Shown here piece by piece: positions 1-12,948 of a stretch of 64,000 bases of DNA. Positions within the stretch are counted from its first letter, which is position 1, and every line of letters starts with the position of its first letter. Both the position numbers and the translations under genes were made by a program. Source of the stretch: Nitrosopumilus sp. (GTDB taxonomy: Archaea; Thermoproteota; Nitrososphaeria; Nitrososphaerales; Nitrosopumilaceae); NCBI GenBank assembly GCA_965223425.1, contig OZ245003.1, positions 2,112,001-2,176,000 of the forward strand. Reading direction: 5' to 3'. A model generated the notes under the pieces. It was given only the letters and a program-made list of their open reading frames with translations, did no database searches and was not told where the DNA came from.

Positions 1-2125
1 TGCCAGTGGTGGTGACTGCAGAATTATCGTCAGTTGTGACGCCATCAAGGAGGTCAGGCGAGTCAGCACCAAGCTCCAGCGTTATCTCGTCTGGAATCAC
101 GGTGATCACGGGGGCTGTGGTGTCGACTACGTGGTAGGTTCTGCTCTTTTGCATGGCAGGGTTTGTGCCGTCAGTGGAGTTGTAGCCGATGACGTAATCG
201 CCCACGACATTAGTGTCGACCGTGCCAGTGGTGGTGACTGCAGAACCGTCGTCAGTTGTGACGCCATCAAGGAGGTCAGGCGAGTCAGCACCAAGCTCCA
301 GCGTTATCTCGTCTGGAATCACGGTGATCACGGGGGCTGTGGTGTCGACTACGTGGTAGGTTCTGCTCTTTTGCATGGCAGGGTTTGTGCCGTCAGTGGA
401 GTCGTAACGTATGATATATTCACCTACGGTGCCGGTGTCGACCGTGCCAGTGGTGGTGACTGCAGAATTATCGTCAGTTGTGACGCCATCAAGGAGGTCA
501 GGCGAGTCAGCACCAAGCTCCAGCGTTATCTCGTCTGGAATCACGGTGATCACGGGGGCTGTGGTGTCGACTACGTGGTAGGTTCTGCTCTTTTGCATGG
601 CAGGGTTTGTGCCGTCAGTGGAGTTGTAGCCGATGACGTAATCGCCCACGACATTAGTGTCGACCGTGCCAGTGGTGGTGACTGCAGAACCGTCGTCAGT
701 TGTGACGCCATCAAGGAGGTCAGGCGAGTCAGCACCAAGCTCCAGCGTTATCTCGTCTGGAATCACGGTGATCACGGGGGCTGTGGTGTCGACTACGTGG
801 TAGGTTCTGCTCTTTTGCATGGCAGGGTTTGTGCCGTCAGTGGAGTCGTAACGTATGATATATTCACCTACGGTGCCGGTGTCGACCGTGCCAGTGGTGG
901 TGACTGCAGAATTATCGTCAGTTGTGACGCCATCAAGGAGGTCAGGCGAGTCAGCACCAAGCTCCAGCGTTATCTCGTCTGGAATCACGGTGATCACGGG
1001 GGCTGTGGTGTCGACTACGTGGTAGGTTCTGCTCTTTTGCATGGCAGGGTTTGTGCCGTCAGTGGAGTTGTAGCCGATGACGTAATCGCCCACGACATTA
1101 GTGTCGACCGTGCCAGTGGTGGTGACTGCAGAACCGTCGTCAGTTGTGACGCCATCAAGGAGGTCAGGCGAGTCAGCACCAAGCTCCAGCGTTATCTCGT
1201 CTGGAATCACGGTGATCACGGGGGCTGTGGTGTCGACTACGTGGTAGGTTCTGCTCTTTTGCATGGCAGGGTTTGTGCCGTCAGTGGAGTTGTAGCCGAT
1301 GACGTAATCGCCCACGACATTAGTGTCGACCGTGCCAGTGGTGGTGACTGCAGAATTATCGTCAGTTGTGACGCCATCAAGGAGGTCAGGCGAGTCAGCA
1401 CCAAGCTCCAGCGTTATCTCGTCTGGAATCACGGTGATCACGGGGGCTGTGGTGTCGACTACGTGGTAGGTTCTGCTCTTTTGCATGGCAGGGTTTGTGC
1501 CGTCAGTGGAGTTGTAGCCGATGACGTAATCGCCCACGACATTAGTGTCGACCGTGCCAGTGGTGGTGACTGCAGAACCGTCGTCAGTTGTGACGCCATC
1601 AAGGAGGTCAGGCGAGTCAGCACCAAGCTCCAGCGTTATCTCGTCTGGAATCACGGTGATCACGGGGGCTGTGGTGTCGACTACGTGGTAGGTTCTGCTC
1701 TTTTGCATGGCAGGGTTTGTGCCGTCAGTGGAGTCGTAACGTATGATATATTCACCTACGGTGCCGGTGTCGACCGTGCCAGTGGTGGTGACTGCAGAAT
1801 TATCGTCAGTTGTGACGCCATCAAGGAGGTCAGGCGAGTCAGCACCAAGCTCCAGCGTTATCTCGTCTGGAATCACGGTGATCACGGGGGCTGTGGTGTC
1901 GACTACGTGGTAGGTTCTGCTCTTTTGCATGGCAGGGTTTGTGCCGTCAGTGGAGTTGTAGCCGATGACGTAATCGCCCACGACATTAGTGTCGACCGTG
2001 CCAGTGGTGGTGACTGCAGAATTATCGTCAGTTGTGACGCCATCAAGGAGGTCAGGCGAGTCAGCACCAAGCTCCAGCGTTATCTCGTCTGGAATCACGG
2101 TGATCACGGGGGCTGTGGTGTCGAC
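1..2125 (-). repeat. Tandem array of 222-bp (74-aa) Ig-like units, at least 9.5 copies
   Basis: The gtcgac anchor of the VD codons ends at 127, 349, 571, 793, 1015, 1237, 1459, 1681, 1903 and 2125 (period 222). Units are identical except at two dimorphic segments. Confidence 0.97.
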
Positions 2126-4657
2126 TTGTAGATCAAAAAAATCCAAATCAATTATCTGGACGCCGTGATCACCAAAACTAGTAACAAGGGCGTACGTGCT
2201 GTTATCTACTATTGATGTGACAATATCACGCGGATTATTAAGAGTATCAAAGGATATTCCATTAGTGGCTCGACCGTCACGGAACGACGTGACGGGAACC
2301 GGTGTCATGGGATTGCTGATGTAGATTATCTGGACGCCGTTGTCACGAATACTTGCGACAAGGGCGTACGTGCCTGACCCTATTTTGGTAGTGGTAATGG
2401 CATATGAACCAGCAAGCGTATCAAAGGTCTTGCCACCAACCGTTTCGCCGTCAATGGCCGATGCAACCGGAACCGGCTCGCTGGGCTCGCTGATGTCGAT
2501 TATCTGGACGCCGTTGTCACTACCTTGACTTGCGACAAGGGCGTACGTGCTGTTATCTATTTTAATAGTGGTGATGTCGCGTGGAATGGTGAGTGTGTCA
2601 AAGGGCATTCCATTAGCGCCGTTTTGACCATCACGGAACGATATGACGGGAACCGGTGTCTTGGGATTGCTGATGTCGATTATCTGGACGCCGTTGTCAC
2701 TAGTACTTGTGACAAGGGCGTACGTGCCTGACCCTATTTTGGTAGTGGTAATGGCATATGGATCAGCAAGCGTATCAAAGGTCTTGCCATCAATCTCTGT
2801 GCCGTTAACAGCTGACGCAACCGGAACCGGTAAAAGAGGATTGCTGATGTCGATTATCTGGACGCCGTGATCATGAATACTTGTGACAAGGGCGTACGTG
2901 CCTGACCCTATTTTGGTAGTGGTAATGGCATATGGACTAGCAAGCGTATCAAAGGTCTTGCCACCAACCGTTTCGCCGTCAATGGCCGATGCAACCGGAA
3001 CCGGCTCGCTGGGCTCGCTGATGTCGATTATCTGAACGCCGTTGTCAATAAAACTAGTGACAAGGGCGTACGTGCTGTTATCTATTTTAATAGTGGTGAT
3101 GTCGCGTGGAATGGTGAGTGTGTCAAAGGGCATTCCATTAGTGGCTTTTTGACCATCACGGAACGATATGACGGGAACCGGTGTCTTGGGATTGCTGATG
3201 TCGATTATCTGGACGCCGTGATAATCAAGAATACTTGTGATAAGGGCGTACGTGTGAGAGCCGATCTTGGCGGTGGTGATGCTGTCTGAGCCGAGAAGCG
3301 TGTCATAGGGCACTCCGTCAACGACGTCACTGTTCTCAACCGATGTGGCACCAGTTTTAGTCCCGCTGATGTCGATTATCTGGACGCCGTTGTCACTACC
3401 TTGACTTGTGACAAGGGCGTACGTGCTATCATCAATAGTGGTGGTGGTGACACCCCAAGCTGTCTGAAGCCTCTCAAATGGTATTCCGCCAACTTCGTCA
3501 CCGTCAATGGCCGATGCAACCGGAACCGGCTCGCTGGGATCGCTGATGTCGATTATCTGGACGCCGTTGTCACTAGTACTTGTGACAAGGGCGTACGTGC
3601 TGCCATCTATTTTAATAGTGGTGATGCCGTATGGCTTGCTGAGTGTGGTAAAAGTCTCTTCATTAGTGGCTTTCTCGCCGTTAATGGCCGATGCAACCGG
3701 AACCGGTAAAAGAGGATTGCTGATGTCGATTATCTGGACGCCGTGATCACCAATACTTGTGACAAGGGCATACGTGTTTAACCCTATTTTGGTAGTAGTG
3801 ATGGCATATGGACGAGCAAGCGTATCAAAGGGCATTCCATTAGCGTCGTTTTGATCGTCATGTAATGATATTACAGGAACCGGCGTCTTGGGATCGCTGA
3901 TGTCGATTATCTGGACGCCGTCGTCATTGCTACTTACGACAAGGGCGTACGTGTGAGCACTGAGCTTTGTGGTCGTGATGCCACGTGGACCATCAAGCAA
4001 AAAGGTTTCTTTATTAGTGGCTGTGGTACCGTCACGTAATGATATTACAGGAACCGGCGTCTTGGGATTGCTGATGTCGATTATCTGGACATTATCACTC
4101 TCAAAACTTGTTACAAGGGCATGTATCGTGCCATCAATTTCTACGACAGCGATCTCCCGTGGACGAGACAAATCAAAGGTCTTGCCACCAACCGTTTCGC
4201 CGTCAATGGCCGATGCAACCGGAACCGGCTTGCTGGGATCGCTGATGTCGATTATCTGGACGCCGTTGTCACCGCTACTTACGACAAGGGCGTACGTGCT
4301 GCCATCTATTTTAATAGTGGTGATGCCGTATGGCTTGCTGAGTGTGTCAAAAGTTTTTCCATTAGTGGCTTTGGAACCGTTAGTGGCCGATGCAACCGGA
4401 ACCGGCTCGCTGGGATCGCTGATGTCGATTATCTGGACGCCGTTGTCATTAAAACTAGTGACAAGGGCGTATATGACATCGTCAATAACTACTACGATGA
4501 TGTTGTGTCCAGTCTCAAGCGTATCAAAGAATCCTCCATTAACTTCTTGTCCATCGTAAATTGATGCGACAGGCGACGGTAAATCGATTGTGGCGTCTGC
4601 AGAGATGACATAAAATGGAATCAAGAAAAAAACAAAAACAAGTATTAGTTTCATCAT
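1..4657 (-). CDS. Large secreted surface protein (>1550 aa, 3' end outside window): signal peptide, 14 LVIVD-type beta-propeller blades, then tandem DUF5011/HYR-like Ig domains
   Basis: Manual minus-strand translation from ATG 4657: MMKLILVFVFFLIPFYVISADA (signal peptide), repeated YALV..S..DNGVQIIDISDP blades, in-frame junction VQIIDLDFFDLQVDTTAPV at 2161-2105, then VDTTAPVITVIPDEITLELGADSPDLLDGVTTDD repeats. No stop seen before the window edge, which explains its absence from the ORF track. Confidence 0.88.
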   Translation of the reverse strand, partial: MMKLILVFVFFLIPFYVISADATIDLPSPVASIYDGQEVNGGFFDTLETGHNIIVVVIDDVIYALVTSFNDNGVQIIDISDPSEPVPVASATNGSKATNGKTFDTLSKPYGITTIKIDGSTYALVVSSGDNGVQIIDISDPSKPVPVASAIDGETVGGKTFDLSRPREIAVVEIDGTIHALVTSFESDNVQIIDISNPKTPVPVISLRDGTTATNKETFLLDGPRGITTTKLSAHTYALVVSSNDDGVQIIDISDPKTPVPVISLHDDQNDANGMPFDTLARPYAITTTKIGLNTYALVTSIGDHGVQIIDISNPLLPVPVASAINGEKATNEETFTTLSKPYGITTIKIDGSTYALVTSTSDNGVQIIDISDPSEPVPVASAIDGDEVGGIPFERLQTAWGVTTTTIDDSTYALVTSQGSDNGVQIIDISGTKTGATSVENSDVVDGVPYDTLLGSDSITTAKIGSHTYALITSILDYHGVQIIDISNPKTPVPVISFRDGQKATNGMPFDTLTIPRDITTIKIDNSTYALVTSFIDNGVQIIDISEPSEPVPVASAIDGETVGGKTFDTLASPYAITTTKIGSGTYALVTSIHDHGVQIIDISNPLLPVPVASAVNGTEIDGKTFDTLADPYAITTTKIGSGTYALVTSTSDNGVQIIDISNPKTPVPVISFRDGQNGANGMPFDTLTIPRDITTIKIDNSTYALVASQGSDNGVQIIDISEPSEPVPVASAIDGETVGGKTFDTLAGSYAITTTKIGSGTYALVASIRDNGVQIIYISNPMTPVPVTSFRDGRATNGISFDTLNNPRDIVTSIVDNSTYALVTSFGDHGVQIIDLDFFDLQVDTTAPVITVIPDEITLELGADSPDLLDGVTTDDNSAVTTTGTVDTNVVGDYVIGYNSTDGTNPAMQKSRTYHVVDTTAPVITVIPDEITLELGADSPDLLDGVTTDDNSAVTTTGTVDTGTVGEYIIRYDSTDGTNPAMQKSRTYHVVDTTAPVITVIPDEITLELGADSPDLLDGVTTDDGSAVTTTGTVDTNVVGDYVIGYNSTDGTNPAMQKSRTYHVVDTTAPVITVIPDEITLELGADSPDLLDGVTTDDNSAVTTTGTVDTNVVGDYVIGYNSTDGTNPAMQKSRTYHVVDTTAPVITVIPDEITLELGADSPDLLDGVTTDDGSAVTTTGTVDTNVVGDYVIGYNSTDGTNPAMQKSRTYHVVDTTAPVITVIPDEITLELGADSPDLLDGVTTDDNSAVTTTGTVDTGTVGEYIIRYDSTDGTNPAMQKSRTYHVVDTTAPVITVIPDEITLELGADSPDLLDGVTTDDGSAVTTTGTVDTNVVGDYVIGYNSTDGTNPAMQKSRTYHVVDTTAPVITVIPDEITLELGADSPDLLDGVTTDDNSAVTTTGTVDTGTVGEYIIRYDSTDGTNPAMQKSRTYHVVDTTAPVITVIPDEITLELGADSPDLLDGVTTDDGSAVTTTGTVDTNVVGDYVIGYNSTDGTNPAMQKSRTYHVVDTTAPVITVIPDEITLELGADSPDLLDGVTTDDNSAVTTTG
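2150..4560 (-). repeat. 14 imperfect ~170-180-bp LVIVD blade repeats
   Basis: Core gctgatgtcgattatctggacgccg recurs 14 times (~2150 variant, 2316, 2490, 2669, 2844, 3017, 3194, 3366, 3542, 3719, 3896, 4070, 4241, 4418). Confidence 0.9.
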
Positions 4658-5696: not shown

Positions 5697-6485
5697 TTAT
5701 TTTGATTTCCTGATTCGGTACATGTTTTTATCAAGCCGTTTTTTGGCGAATTTATAATATTCCGGAACAATTTCAAACCCGAGAAACTTTCTACCAAGGG
5801 ATTTACTCACTACTGCTACTTGCCCCGAACCAAGAAAGGGATCAAGTACAATGTCTTTTTTTTCACTAGAGTATTCTAATAACTTTTCAATTAGCTCAGA
5901 AGGGAGTTTCGTTGGAGTTTTTTCATCTCCCGCCCAGTACTCCCTTTTGATATTCCATACATCTTCTTTGTCCTTGTAATGAAGACTTCTTCCATCCTTG
6001 GTCTTTTCATCCTTTTTGAATCGGGAAAACGAAAAGAACTTCCGTTTCTTGTCATTTTTACAGACGTAAATACAATGATAATGAGAAGTGACAAATTTCT
6101 TTTTTGTGACAACGCCAAACTGGTATTTCCAAATTATATGGTTAATAGTGACAAATCCAACATCGTCTAGCGCTCGTAGGATGTCTTTGAGGTTATTCCA
6201 TCCTGAAAAAACATACATGCTTCCTGAATCCTTTAGAATTGGAAAAACTTTACTCATCCATGCAAACGTAAAATCATAGTAATCCTCAGGCTTGATTTCA
6301 TTGTATCCAGGTAACACCCTAGATGGAGTTCGATTATAATTTGCCTTTTTTGCCTTGAAATTGATTGCAAATGGGGGATCAGTAATTACAAGATCAATTT
6401 TATTTTTAGGAATTGAGCTCATTCCTTCAATGCAGTTTAGATTATAAATTTCGTTGACATTGATTTGTTTCATTTTTAAATTCAA
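5697..6485 (-). CDS. Site-specific DNA methyltransferase (N4-C/N6-A, beta class); no adjacent restriction gene
   Basis: DLVITDPPF catalytic motif precedes the VLDPFLGSG SAM-binding motif. Confidence 0.9.
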   Translation of the reverse strand: MNLKMKQINVNEIYNLNCIEGMSSIPKNKIDLVITDPPFAINFKAKKANYNRTPSRVLPGYNEIKPEDYYDFTFAWMSKVFPILKDSGSMYVFSGWNNLKDILRALDDVGFVTINHIIWKYQFGVVTKKKFVTSHYHCIYVCKNDKKRKFFSFSRFKKDEKTKDGRSLHYKDKEDVWNIKREYWAGDEKTPTKLPSELIEKLLEYSSEKKDIVLDPFLGSGQVAVVSKSLGRKFLGFEIVPEYYKFAKKRLDKNMYRIRKSK

Positions 6486-12833: not shown

Positions 12834-12948
12834 GCCGGGGTAGCTCAGCCTGGTTAGAGTGCCAGTTCGCTTGGTAAACTCTAGCGGTTCTCCAACTAAG
12901 GCAATACTCATAATCTGGAGGTCGCGAGTTCGAAACTCGCCCCCGGCA
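12834..12948 (+). tRNA. tRNA-Met(CAT), elongator, with a 40-nt intron (12866-12905) in the anticodon stem
   Basis: GCCGGGG/CCCCGGC acceptor stem, T loop TTCGAAA. Removing 12866-12905 restores CCAGA-CTCATAA-TCTGG. Confidence 0.9.

Follow-up and report, generated by a model that had tools for sequence, protein, structure and literature searches.

Hypervariable loop codons in the predicted LVIVD beta-propellers of a giant archaeal surface protein

The HET-D/HET-E (NWD) family of WD40 proteins in Podospora anserina comprises about ten genes, the repeats of which undergo concerted evolution within and between loci (Paoletti, Saupe and Clave 2007, PMC1805685). As reported there, four residues per repeat, located on the interaction surface, are under diversifying selection, and the diversity arises from mutation supply, repeat reshuffling and selection without a dedicated mutator, repeat-induced point mutation (RIP) being proposed as an extra source of mutations. 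The WRAP protein of Nostoc punctiforme has 14 blades that fold as two seven-bladed propellers and show almost no differences from each other (PMC9218822). Diversity-generating retroelements (DGRs), including archaeal ones, have also been reported (Paul et al. 2015, PMC4372165; Handa et al. 2016, PMC5006420; Kaur et al. 2020, PMC7159879). Typical of such elements are a reverse transcriptase of the RVT_1 type, an accessory protein of the Avd type and a template repeat, a mostly non-coding near-copy of the variable repeat to whose adenines the mismatches are confined; the target varies within and between populations, and its variable region has a C-type lectin or immunoglobulin-like (Ig-like) fold and usually lies C-terminally in the protein. 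Here we analyze a 64,000-nucleotide stretch (the window, G000:C1:2112001-2176000) of a Nitrosopumilus sp. genome (2.64 Mb in two contigs, 99.99% complete), and within it the gene for a 3510-amino-acid (aa) protein whose tandem LVIVD blades differ at a small number of loop codons.

The LVIVD repeat (PF08309) is known from archaeal cell-surface proteins with tandem blades (Adindla et al. 2004, PMC2447325). Per-column hypervariability and multi-gene blade pools are not addressed in the available parts of the LVIVD and choice-of-anchor B family descriptions (PMC2447325), and the accessible text of Pereira and Lupas 2022 (PMC9218822) does not cover LVIVD. For ammonia-oxidising archaea, the nearest paper on surface proteins that are giant or hypervariable (PMC13037477) deals, in the portion available, with other adhesins, and within a partial coverage of the literature we found no published description of hypervariable LVIVD blades in these organisms.

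A sequence-only reading of the window had noticed that blade segments differ at loop codons that keep T in the third position (NNT codons), and had offered two explanations: a DGR-like mutator acting in trans, or diversifying selection combined with conversion between blades. Our analysis supports the second and speaks against the first. The region is best described as a conserved blade scaffold in which short patches are copied between blades and in which 7-8 codons, predicted to lie on one face, are hypervariable. We consider it probable that the region encodes two LVIVD propellers subject to concerted blade evolution, with loops that diverge by point mutation, in part under selection, and with no mutator involved.

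Blades, predicted fold and variable codons

The protein contains 14 blade units, spaced by 57-60 aa and each ending in GVQII, which agrees with the number counted in the sequence-only reading. The first strand is degenerate in blades 1 and 8, as expected at the start of a propeller; together with the existence of paralogs that have only 7 or 14 blades, this points to two seven-bladed propellers. The AlphaFold2 model of aa 429-845, obtained with a 25-row alignment (predicted local distance difference test, pLDDT, 94.7; predicted template modelling score, pTM, 0.93), consists of 28 strands (7 x 4), the N-terminal strand closing the last blade. The top Foldseek matches of the model are seven-bladed propellers, the EPTP domain of LGI1 (E 1.2e-14) being followed by WD40 proteins, and a sequence search of the PDB returned no solved relatives.

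Two column numberings are used below, that of a 62-column codon alignment of the 14 blades and that of a 58-column alignment of the blade family; 14-blade columns 54, 32 and 16 correspond to family columns 51, 30 and 15. In the strand order assigned by DSSP, family column 15 is the end of outer strand D, family columns 29-33 lie before or at the start of inner strand A, and family columns 50-53 form the B-C loop (mapped on blade 9). In an up-and-down four-stranded blade these three sites point the same way, and by this strand order the variable columns are predicted to share one face of the propeller. The moderately variable family columns 38 and 41 lie towards the opposite face. By the usual convention, the face with the D end, the A start and the B-C loop is the ligand-binding face of WD40-type propellers.

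All 13 strings of the four codon sets listed in the sequence-only reading were recovered in place, in frame on the minus strand: CTTGCT-(CGT/AGT/GAT/GGT)-YCATATGCC in blades 5, 10, 11 and 13; AGTATT-(GGT/CTT/CAT/CGT)-GA in blades 5, 8, 10 and 13; AGTTTT-(AAT/ATT/GGT)-GA in blades 1, 9 and 14; and AGTAGC-(GGT/AAT)-GAC in blades 2 and 4. The most variable position, 14-blade column 54, is occupied by AGT (4 blades), GGT (3), AAT (2), CTT, ATT, CAT and CGT (one each) and a single GAG, so that T ends 13 of its 14 codons; the GAG belongs to blade 3 and was absent from the earlier sets. The reported alternation of a neighbouring codon between AAC, CAC and GAC is also present, 14-blade column 57 being AAC in eight blades, CAC in four, and GAC and GAT in one each. 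At 14-blade column 32, 10 of the 14 codons end in T; in the paralogs only 18 of 98 do, and most are GGC.

The wider description of the blades in the sequence-only reading was overstated. The blades are not nearly identical outside the variable codons, since their pairwise nucleotide identity ranges from 50 to 97% and only the pairs 10/13 (96.6%) and 9/12 (94.9%) are close. These two pairs point to a two-blade duplication, and a 354-bp period was also found; the codon sets themselves come from blade subfamilies. Nor is NNT a property of variable loops in general: T occupies the third position (T3) in 34% of codons in the ten columns with at least six amino acids, and in 30% of codons in the invariant columns. 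Within this gene the NNT pattern fits only 14-blade columns 54 and 32, and other variable columns keep C (column 44, 13/14; column 35, 11/14), A (column 19) or G (column 25). Synonymous sites do barely move in the blade core, where third-position diversity averages 0.15 (14-blade columns 1-3 and 44-62), but the claim fails for 14-blade columns 4-43 (average 0.47).

Using a profile built from the 14 blades, we identified 112 blades in 12 giant open reading frames (ORFs) of the genome, which encode 1484-7841 aa and carry 7 or 14 blades each. With 44,440 codons, the family makes up about 1.7% of the genome, and 105 of the 112 blades are distinct at the DNA level. Family column 51 ends in T in 100 of the 112 blades, and it encodes 15 different amino acids. 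Third bases are held in other columns as well: T in column 15 (97/112) and column 4 (94/97), C in column 53 (99/112), G in column 56 (110/112) and A in column 57 (112/112). The constant third-position T is thus the retained ancestral base of its column, and C, A and G are kept equally well elsewhere. On a tree of the 105 distinct blades, column 51 has 6.7 synonymous changes on 0.65 sites, compared with a family mean of 14.3 per site; as this count is not below the mean expectation, the constancy of T reflects descent. Descent from a few ancestral blades, which the sequence-only reading had named as an outcome that would undo its proposal, therefore accounts for the NNT bias, every column holding its own third base. 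Codon usage was considered as another cause of the bias and rejected, because the giant genes favour C-ending codons (third-position C, C3, 42.8%; T3 18.7%; other long frames of the genome, C3 19.7% and T3 28.4%), with AAT making up 20% of their Asn codons and GGT 10% of their Gly codons.

The same columns vary in 54 blades from eight loci of five other genomes of the genus. In these blades the T of family column 51 has decayed to 35/54 (background T3 26%), in step with the silent sites of conserved neighbours, which retain T in 28/38 (column 25), C in 42/54 (column 54) and A in 44/54 (column 57).

Nonsynonymous and synonymous changes were counted per column by parsimony on a single tree of the 105 distinct blades, over the 58 family columns. 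The overall ratio of nonsynonymous to synonymous rates is 0.71. In seven columns the nonsynonymous rate (dN) exceeds 1.7 times the mean synonymous rate (dS), the ratios being 2.9 for column 51, 2.6 for column 50, 2.35 for column 29, 2.3 for column 32, 1.8 for column 30, 1.76 for column 38 and 1.75 for column 53. Column 51 has 96.3 nonsynonymous and 6.7 synonymous changes (p 3.5e-5), and column 15 has 40.8 and 0.2, respectively (p 6.2e-5). These counts support the diversifying-selection part of the second explanation, with the reservation that selection is formally significant at these two columns only.

Evidence for conversion comes from patch mosaics. Blade 11 is identical to blade 10 at 104 of 111 nucleotides in 14-blade columns 24-62, and yet its columns 50-57 are those of blade 6 (18/18, versus 13/18 to blade 10), and its first third is nearer to blade 6 (52/63) than to blade 10 (43/63). 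Blade 12 is 95% identical to blade 9, with columns 50-57 matching blade 7 (20/21) and columns 19-23 matching blade 5 (14/15). Part of the apparent single-codon change is, given these mosaics, the copying of existing loop cassettes.

Entire propellers, too, recur in more than one gene. Between the first propellers of two giant genes (G000:C1:535849-537183 and 974011-975345) there are 7 differences in 1200 aligned bases, and all 56 hypervariable codons are the same. Between the second propellers of another gene pair (539626-540963 and 1229619-1230956) there are 6 differences in 1200 bases, and 3 of the 56 hypervariable codons are affected, by one silent and one replacement change in family column 33 and one replacement in family column 15. 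The pairs are 99.4-99.5% identical, whereas the other propeller of the same duplicate-bearing genes differs by 18% (213/1191 bases). These sequences indicate recent exchange or duplication of propeller modules. The duplicates keep nearly all of their hypervariable codons, which argues against ongoing hypermutation.

Comparison with other samples used the assembled contigs of four runs from four studies; such contigs drop rare variants, runs X5 and X6 cover 15 and 14 of the 30 bins, respectively, and run X1 may be the sample of origin. Within these limits the contigs differ from the window at only three bases (2617, 2619 and 2621, in one contig of run X3), none of which falls in an NNT codon. 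On the coding strand, this X3 variant changes AAC GGC GCT of blade 12 to the blade 9 version, AAA GCC ACT, and is thus a patch of the conversion type. The many contig joints that skip 180-2210 bases connect repeats whose shared sides are short, and they may be artefacts of assembly. One of them, in a run X6 contig (depth 16), joins position 2481 to 2662, the two sides sharing 39 letters; the 180 bases omitted (2482-2661) equal the length of one blade exactly, and the contig could represent either a genuine variant with 13 blades or a collapse of the repeat during assembly.

Selection, drift and targeted mutation

In the preferred reading, the region would encode the two N-terminal seven-bladed LVIVD propellers of a secreted or surface protein, one of 12 giant paralogs. 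The likeness of the scaffold, including its synonymous sites, would result from the recent amplification of the blades combined with the copying of short patches among blades and genes. A few codons, at the end of strand D, just before or at the start of strand A and in the B-C loop, would diverge fast by ordinary point mutation, at least some of them under diversifying selection. The third-base T would be the ancestral base of its column, changing at the normal, low synonymous rate of the family while positions 1 and 2 turn over. Likely, such propellers would serve as a repertoire of binding faces held off the cell on a long Ig-like stalk.

Several observations weigh against this reading. The counts per column assume a single tree, an assumption that recombination violates. 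Once the test is corrected for its 58 columns, only columns 51 and 15 retain a significant nonsynonymous excess within the site; the excess is nominal at columns 49 and 41, and at columns 29, 30, 32, 50 and 53 (p 0.14-0.73) drift at unconstrained sites would fit. Column 15 is nearly devoid of silent change, its third-base T almost never turning into C, where the family mean predicts about nine silent changes (examples of this column are at window positions 2279-2281 and 2453-2455). The placement of the variable columns on a shared face follows from the strand order and topology of a model rather than from measured distances, and the function of the propeller faces is deduced from architecture. 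The T-ending variable codons run counter to the usage of the giant genes themselves, which codon bias does not explain, and the third positions of these genes are C-rich, sharply unlike those of the rest of the genome (examples of the genes are C1:535756-547491, 1218597-1237523 and 1927945-1951467). Silent sites of the scaffold are alike even across species, with CTT at family column 28 in 48 of 50 blades; selection at the DNA level and exchange between genomes are possibilities here. Finally, the codons of family columns 51 and 15 do have the NNT form, and their first and second positions hold A more often than any other base (39 and 37 of 112 at column 51), as a DGR acting on AAT would leave them. 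None of these features requires a retroelement, but they leave small room for a targeted process of some other kind.

The alternative that survives best retains the same anatomy without positive selection: the loops would be unconstrained and drifting, and would appear hypervariable only relative to a recently amplified and homogenised scaffold. Pereira and Lupas (2022, PMC9218822) describe how propellers have been amplified from single blades recently and more than once. Most hypervariable columns change about equally at the three codon positions (37/36/30 at column 29, 33/31/29 at column 32 and 23/24/24 at column 38), as drift would have it, and these columns show no significant within-site excess. 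Within the seven loop columns pN/pS (the ratio of nonsynonymous to synonymous differences per site) is only 1.40, and their pS is 0.21, compared with 0.13 elsewhere, as expected from imported diverged patches. However, the excess at columns 51 and 15 withstands the correction. In 45 disjoint closest pairs, moreover, pN of the seven loop columns is about twice the pS of all columns (ratio 2.19, bootstrap 95% 1.75-2.68), a value that is biased upward because the seven columns were picked from the same data; in the same pairs the corresponding ratio for pN of the other 51 columns is 0.53. We regard drift without selection as unlikely.

A bolder extension of the preferred reading would treat the 112 blades as a pool of cassettes for the face loops. 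Continuing conversion of short patches would carry these cassettes from blade to blade and from gene to gene, and the cells of one population would show different faces. If so, the family would be an archaeal counterpart of the pilin/VlsE-type or HET-type repertoires, perhaps directed against viruses for which these proteins are receptors, or serving surface or partner recognition, and the X3 variant at 2617-2621 would be a first glimpse of it. We hold this extension to be a long shot.

A DGR-like or other targeted mutator, supplied in trans by a virus or an unassembled element and rewriting AAT/AAC to NNT/NNC codons, would account for the NNT form of family columns 51 and 15, where the first two codon positions hold the four bases in near-even shares with a plurality of A, for the T3 opposed to codon usage and for family column 53, which is mostly NAC. 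The sequence-only reading saw neither a reverse transcriptase nor a template in the window and proposed to look for both across the genome. A six-frame search of the whole genome with RVT_1 (PF00078) gave no match at E <=0.01 (3 of 14 control genomes match), and PF05635, which we take to be the family of bAvd, gave none in the genome either. The nhmmer search with a DNA profile of the blades returned 112 hits, all within the 12 giant ORFs; every blade-like DNA copy thus lies inside a coding gene, which leaves no template. Among the matches listed by blastn, no copy outside the gene of the 3510-aa protein exceeds 68% identity.

The pattern of differences is not that of adenine mutagenesis. In 55 blade pairs of at least 90% identity, 56% of the 566 mismatches involve A, and the mismatches are distributed over codon positions 1, 2 and 3 as 207, 171 and 188. 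In none of the 48 pairs with at least four mismatches does one member have A throughout, as a template would against its variable copy; blades 10 and 13, for example, differ by two C/T changes, plus changes with A in either member. Many scaffold adenines are invariant (e.g., in CAG ATA ATC GAC ATC), the second A of 14-blade column 57 never varies, other hypervariable columns are not NNY, and indels also separate blades. The fold that carries the variable codons is a seven-bladed propeller in the N-terminal part of the protein, rather than a C-type lectin or Ig-like fold. The duplicated propellers keep nearly all of their hypervariable codons, and the assembled contigs of the four runs, within the limits given above, show no change at the NNT codons. 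We give such a mutator next to no credence.

NNT codons among paralogous repeats are therefore not evidence for a DGR, and a tempting false positive is removed. Before a mutator is invoked, the constancy of a third base should be judged against silent sites nearby and against a template. Apart from this, an ammonia-oxidising archaeon is shown to possess a large pool of blades, with 12 genes and 112 blades whose variable residues would ring one face of propellers on long stalks. The surface biology of ammonia-oxidising archaea is poorly known, and the diversified faces suggest adhesion or interactions with partners or viruses.

The gene, its paralogs and neighbouring features

The genome encodes AmoA of the archaeal type (E 3.9e-118), so the label "archaeal" given in the sequence-only reading is correct. 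The whole 3510-aa product comprises a putative signal peptide, the 14 LVIVD blades, 31 Ig-like repeats, a proline-rich repeat and a C-terminal region of ~300 aa (Table 1). It matches the Pfam families LVIVD (PF08309, 95.6 bits, cut-off 20.2) and Bact_surface_Ig-like (PF16403, 173 bits), and the NCBIfam family choice-of-anchor B (TIGR04312, 103.8 bits, cut-off 100).

Table 1. Positions of the described features in the window
Feature	Position	Strand	Basis or remark
Propeller 1, LVIVD blades 1-7, aa 19-428	3374..4603	-	Blade anchors; blade hidden Markov model matches
Propeller 2, LVIVD blades 8-14, aa 429-836	2150..3373	-	AlphaFold2 model; Foldseek seven-bladed propeller matches
Most variable codon, 14 copies (14-blade column 54), second residue of B-C loop	2171..4450	-	Coordinates
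First bases of the column-54 codons (plus-strand coordinates)	4448, 4271, 4100, 3926, 3749, 3572, 3395, 3227, 3047, 2873, 2699, 2519, 2345, 2171	-	14 blades
14-blade column 32 (family column 30), 14 copies, just before inner strand A	2234..4513	-	Includes the CTTGCT-NNT set (four copies)
Only between-sample difference	2617..2621	-	Run X3, one contig, depth 6; blade 12 codons 679-681
Giant surface protein gene, codons 1-1552 of 3510 aa	2..4657	-	Open frame; ATG at 4657; extends beyond window start to G000:C1:2106128
Likely signal peptide, aa 1-21, MMKLILVFVFFLIPFYVISAD...	4595..4657	-	Hydrophobic N-terminus, judged by eye from translation
Ig-like stalk, first 9.6 of 31 tandem 74-aa repeats	2..2122	-	222-bp period, 94% matches

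Two variants alternate among the 31 Ig-like repeats, DDNSAV...TNVVGDYVIGYN and DDGSAV...TGTVGEYIIRYD (window positions 1-2126 and on to G000:C1:2106128). A long frame of 709 aa on the opposite strand (2..2131, plus strand) is the antisense of this array and most likely no gene. The giant proteins end in two kinds of conserved C-terminal domain, one common to the 3510-aa protein and two paralogs, and the other, found in nine paralogs, ending in ...LTAQEFVAALSYLGQRGLL(L)N. The ~300 C-terminal aa of the 3510-aa protein match no Pfam or NCBIfam family; neither domain type has a match above threshold in these databases, the nine-paralog type giving only a sub-threshold match to ANF_receptor, and a transmembrane anchor is not obvious in either.

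The first 4 kb of the window have a G+C content of 50-56%, versus 33-40% elsewhere. Both biased gene conversion in repeats and a foreign origin are possible causes of the high G+C content and C3 of the giant genes. Beyond this genome, 2699 cluster representatives match the family at E <=0.001 and 502 at E <=1e-30. Matches at E <=1e-10 occur in 5 of 18 genomes of the genus and in none of 12 genomes of other families; orthologs suitable for strain comparison were not found among these 30 relatives, where the best match is 48% identical.

Two other features were noted in the window. A 115-base tRNA match (12834-12948, plus strand; Rfam tRNA, 48.4 bits) is long enough to hold an intron, and introns in tRNAs are common in archaea. 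A 262-aa frame (5697-6485, minus strand) with a DPPF-type motif (VITDPPF) looks, by eye, like an N6-adenine or N4-cytosine DNA methyltransferase.

Comparison with known systems

The LVIVD blades resemble a DGR target in having a stable scaffold and, on a surface that would bind ligands, a few NNT/NNC codons that can encode many residues without stops. They differ from one in that 112 dispersed "targets" take the place of one variable repeat and that neither the recent duplicates nor the contigs of the different samples point to turnover. Among described families, the 3510-aa protein belongs by profile score to LVIVD / choice-of-anchor B, and its fold is modelled as a beta-propeller. Like the recently amplified propeller proteins that include WRAP, it is large and multi-domain, has 14 similar blades predicted to form two seven-bladed propellers, and shows a low synonymous divergence among blades that points to recent amplification; unlike those of WRAP, the LVIVD blades are well differentiated, their differences are predicted to concentrate on one face, and the blade type is common to 12 paralogs.

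By mode of evolution, and not by homology, the HET family of P. anserina appears to be the closest working parallel to the LVIVD blade pool. In both, repeats are shared and exchanged within and between several genes, and a few codons per repeat diversify. The HET proteins are fungal, cytoplasmic and of the NLR type with WD40 blades, whereas those described here are archaeal, secreted giant proteins with LVIVD blades. RIP has no counterpart in the archaeal family, the archaeal blades are less alike (50-97%), selection is formally significant at two columns only, and a recognition role of the LVIVD blades is suggested by architecture. This style of evolution has been seen before, in fungal WD40 families and in other repetitive propellers, and is notable here for its scale and its host.

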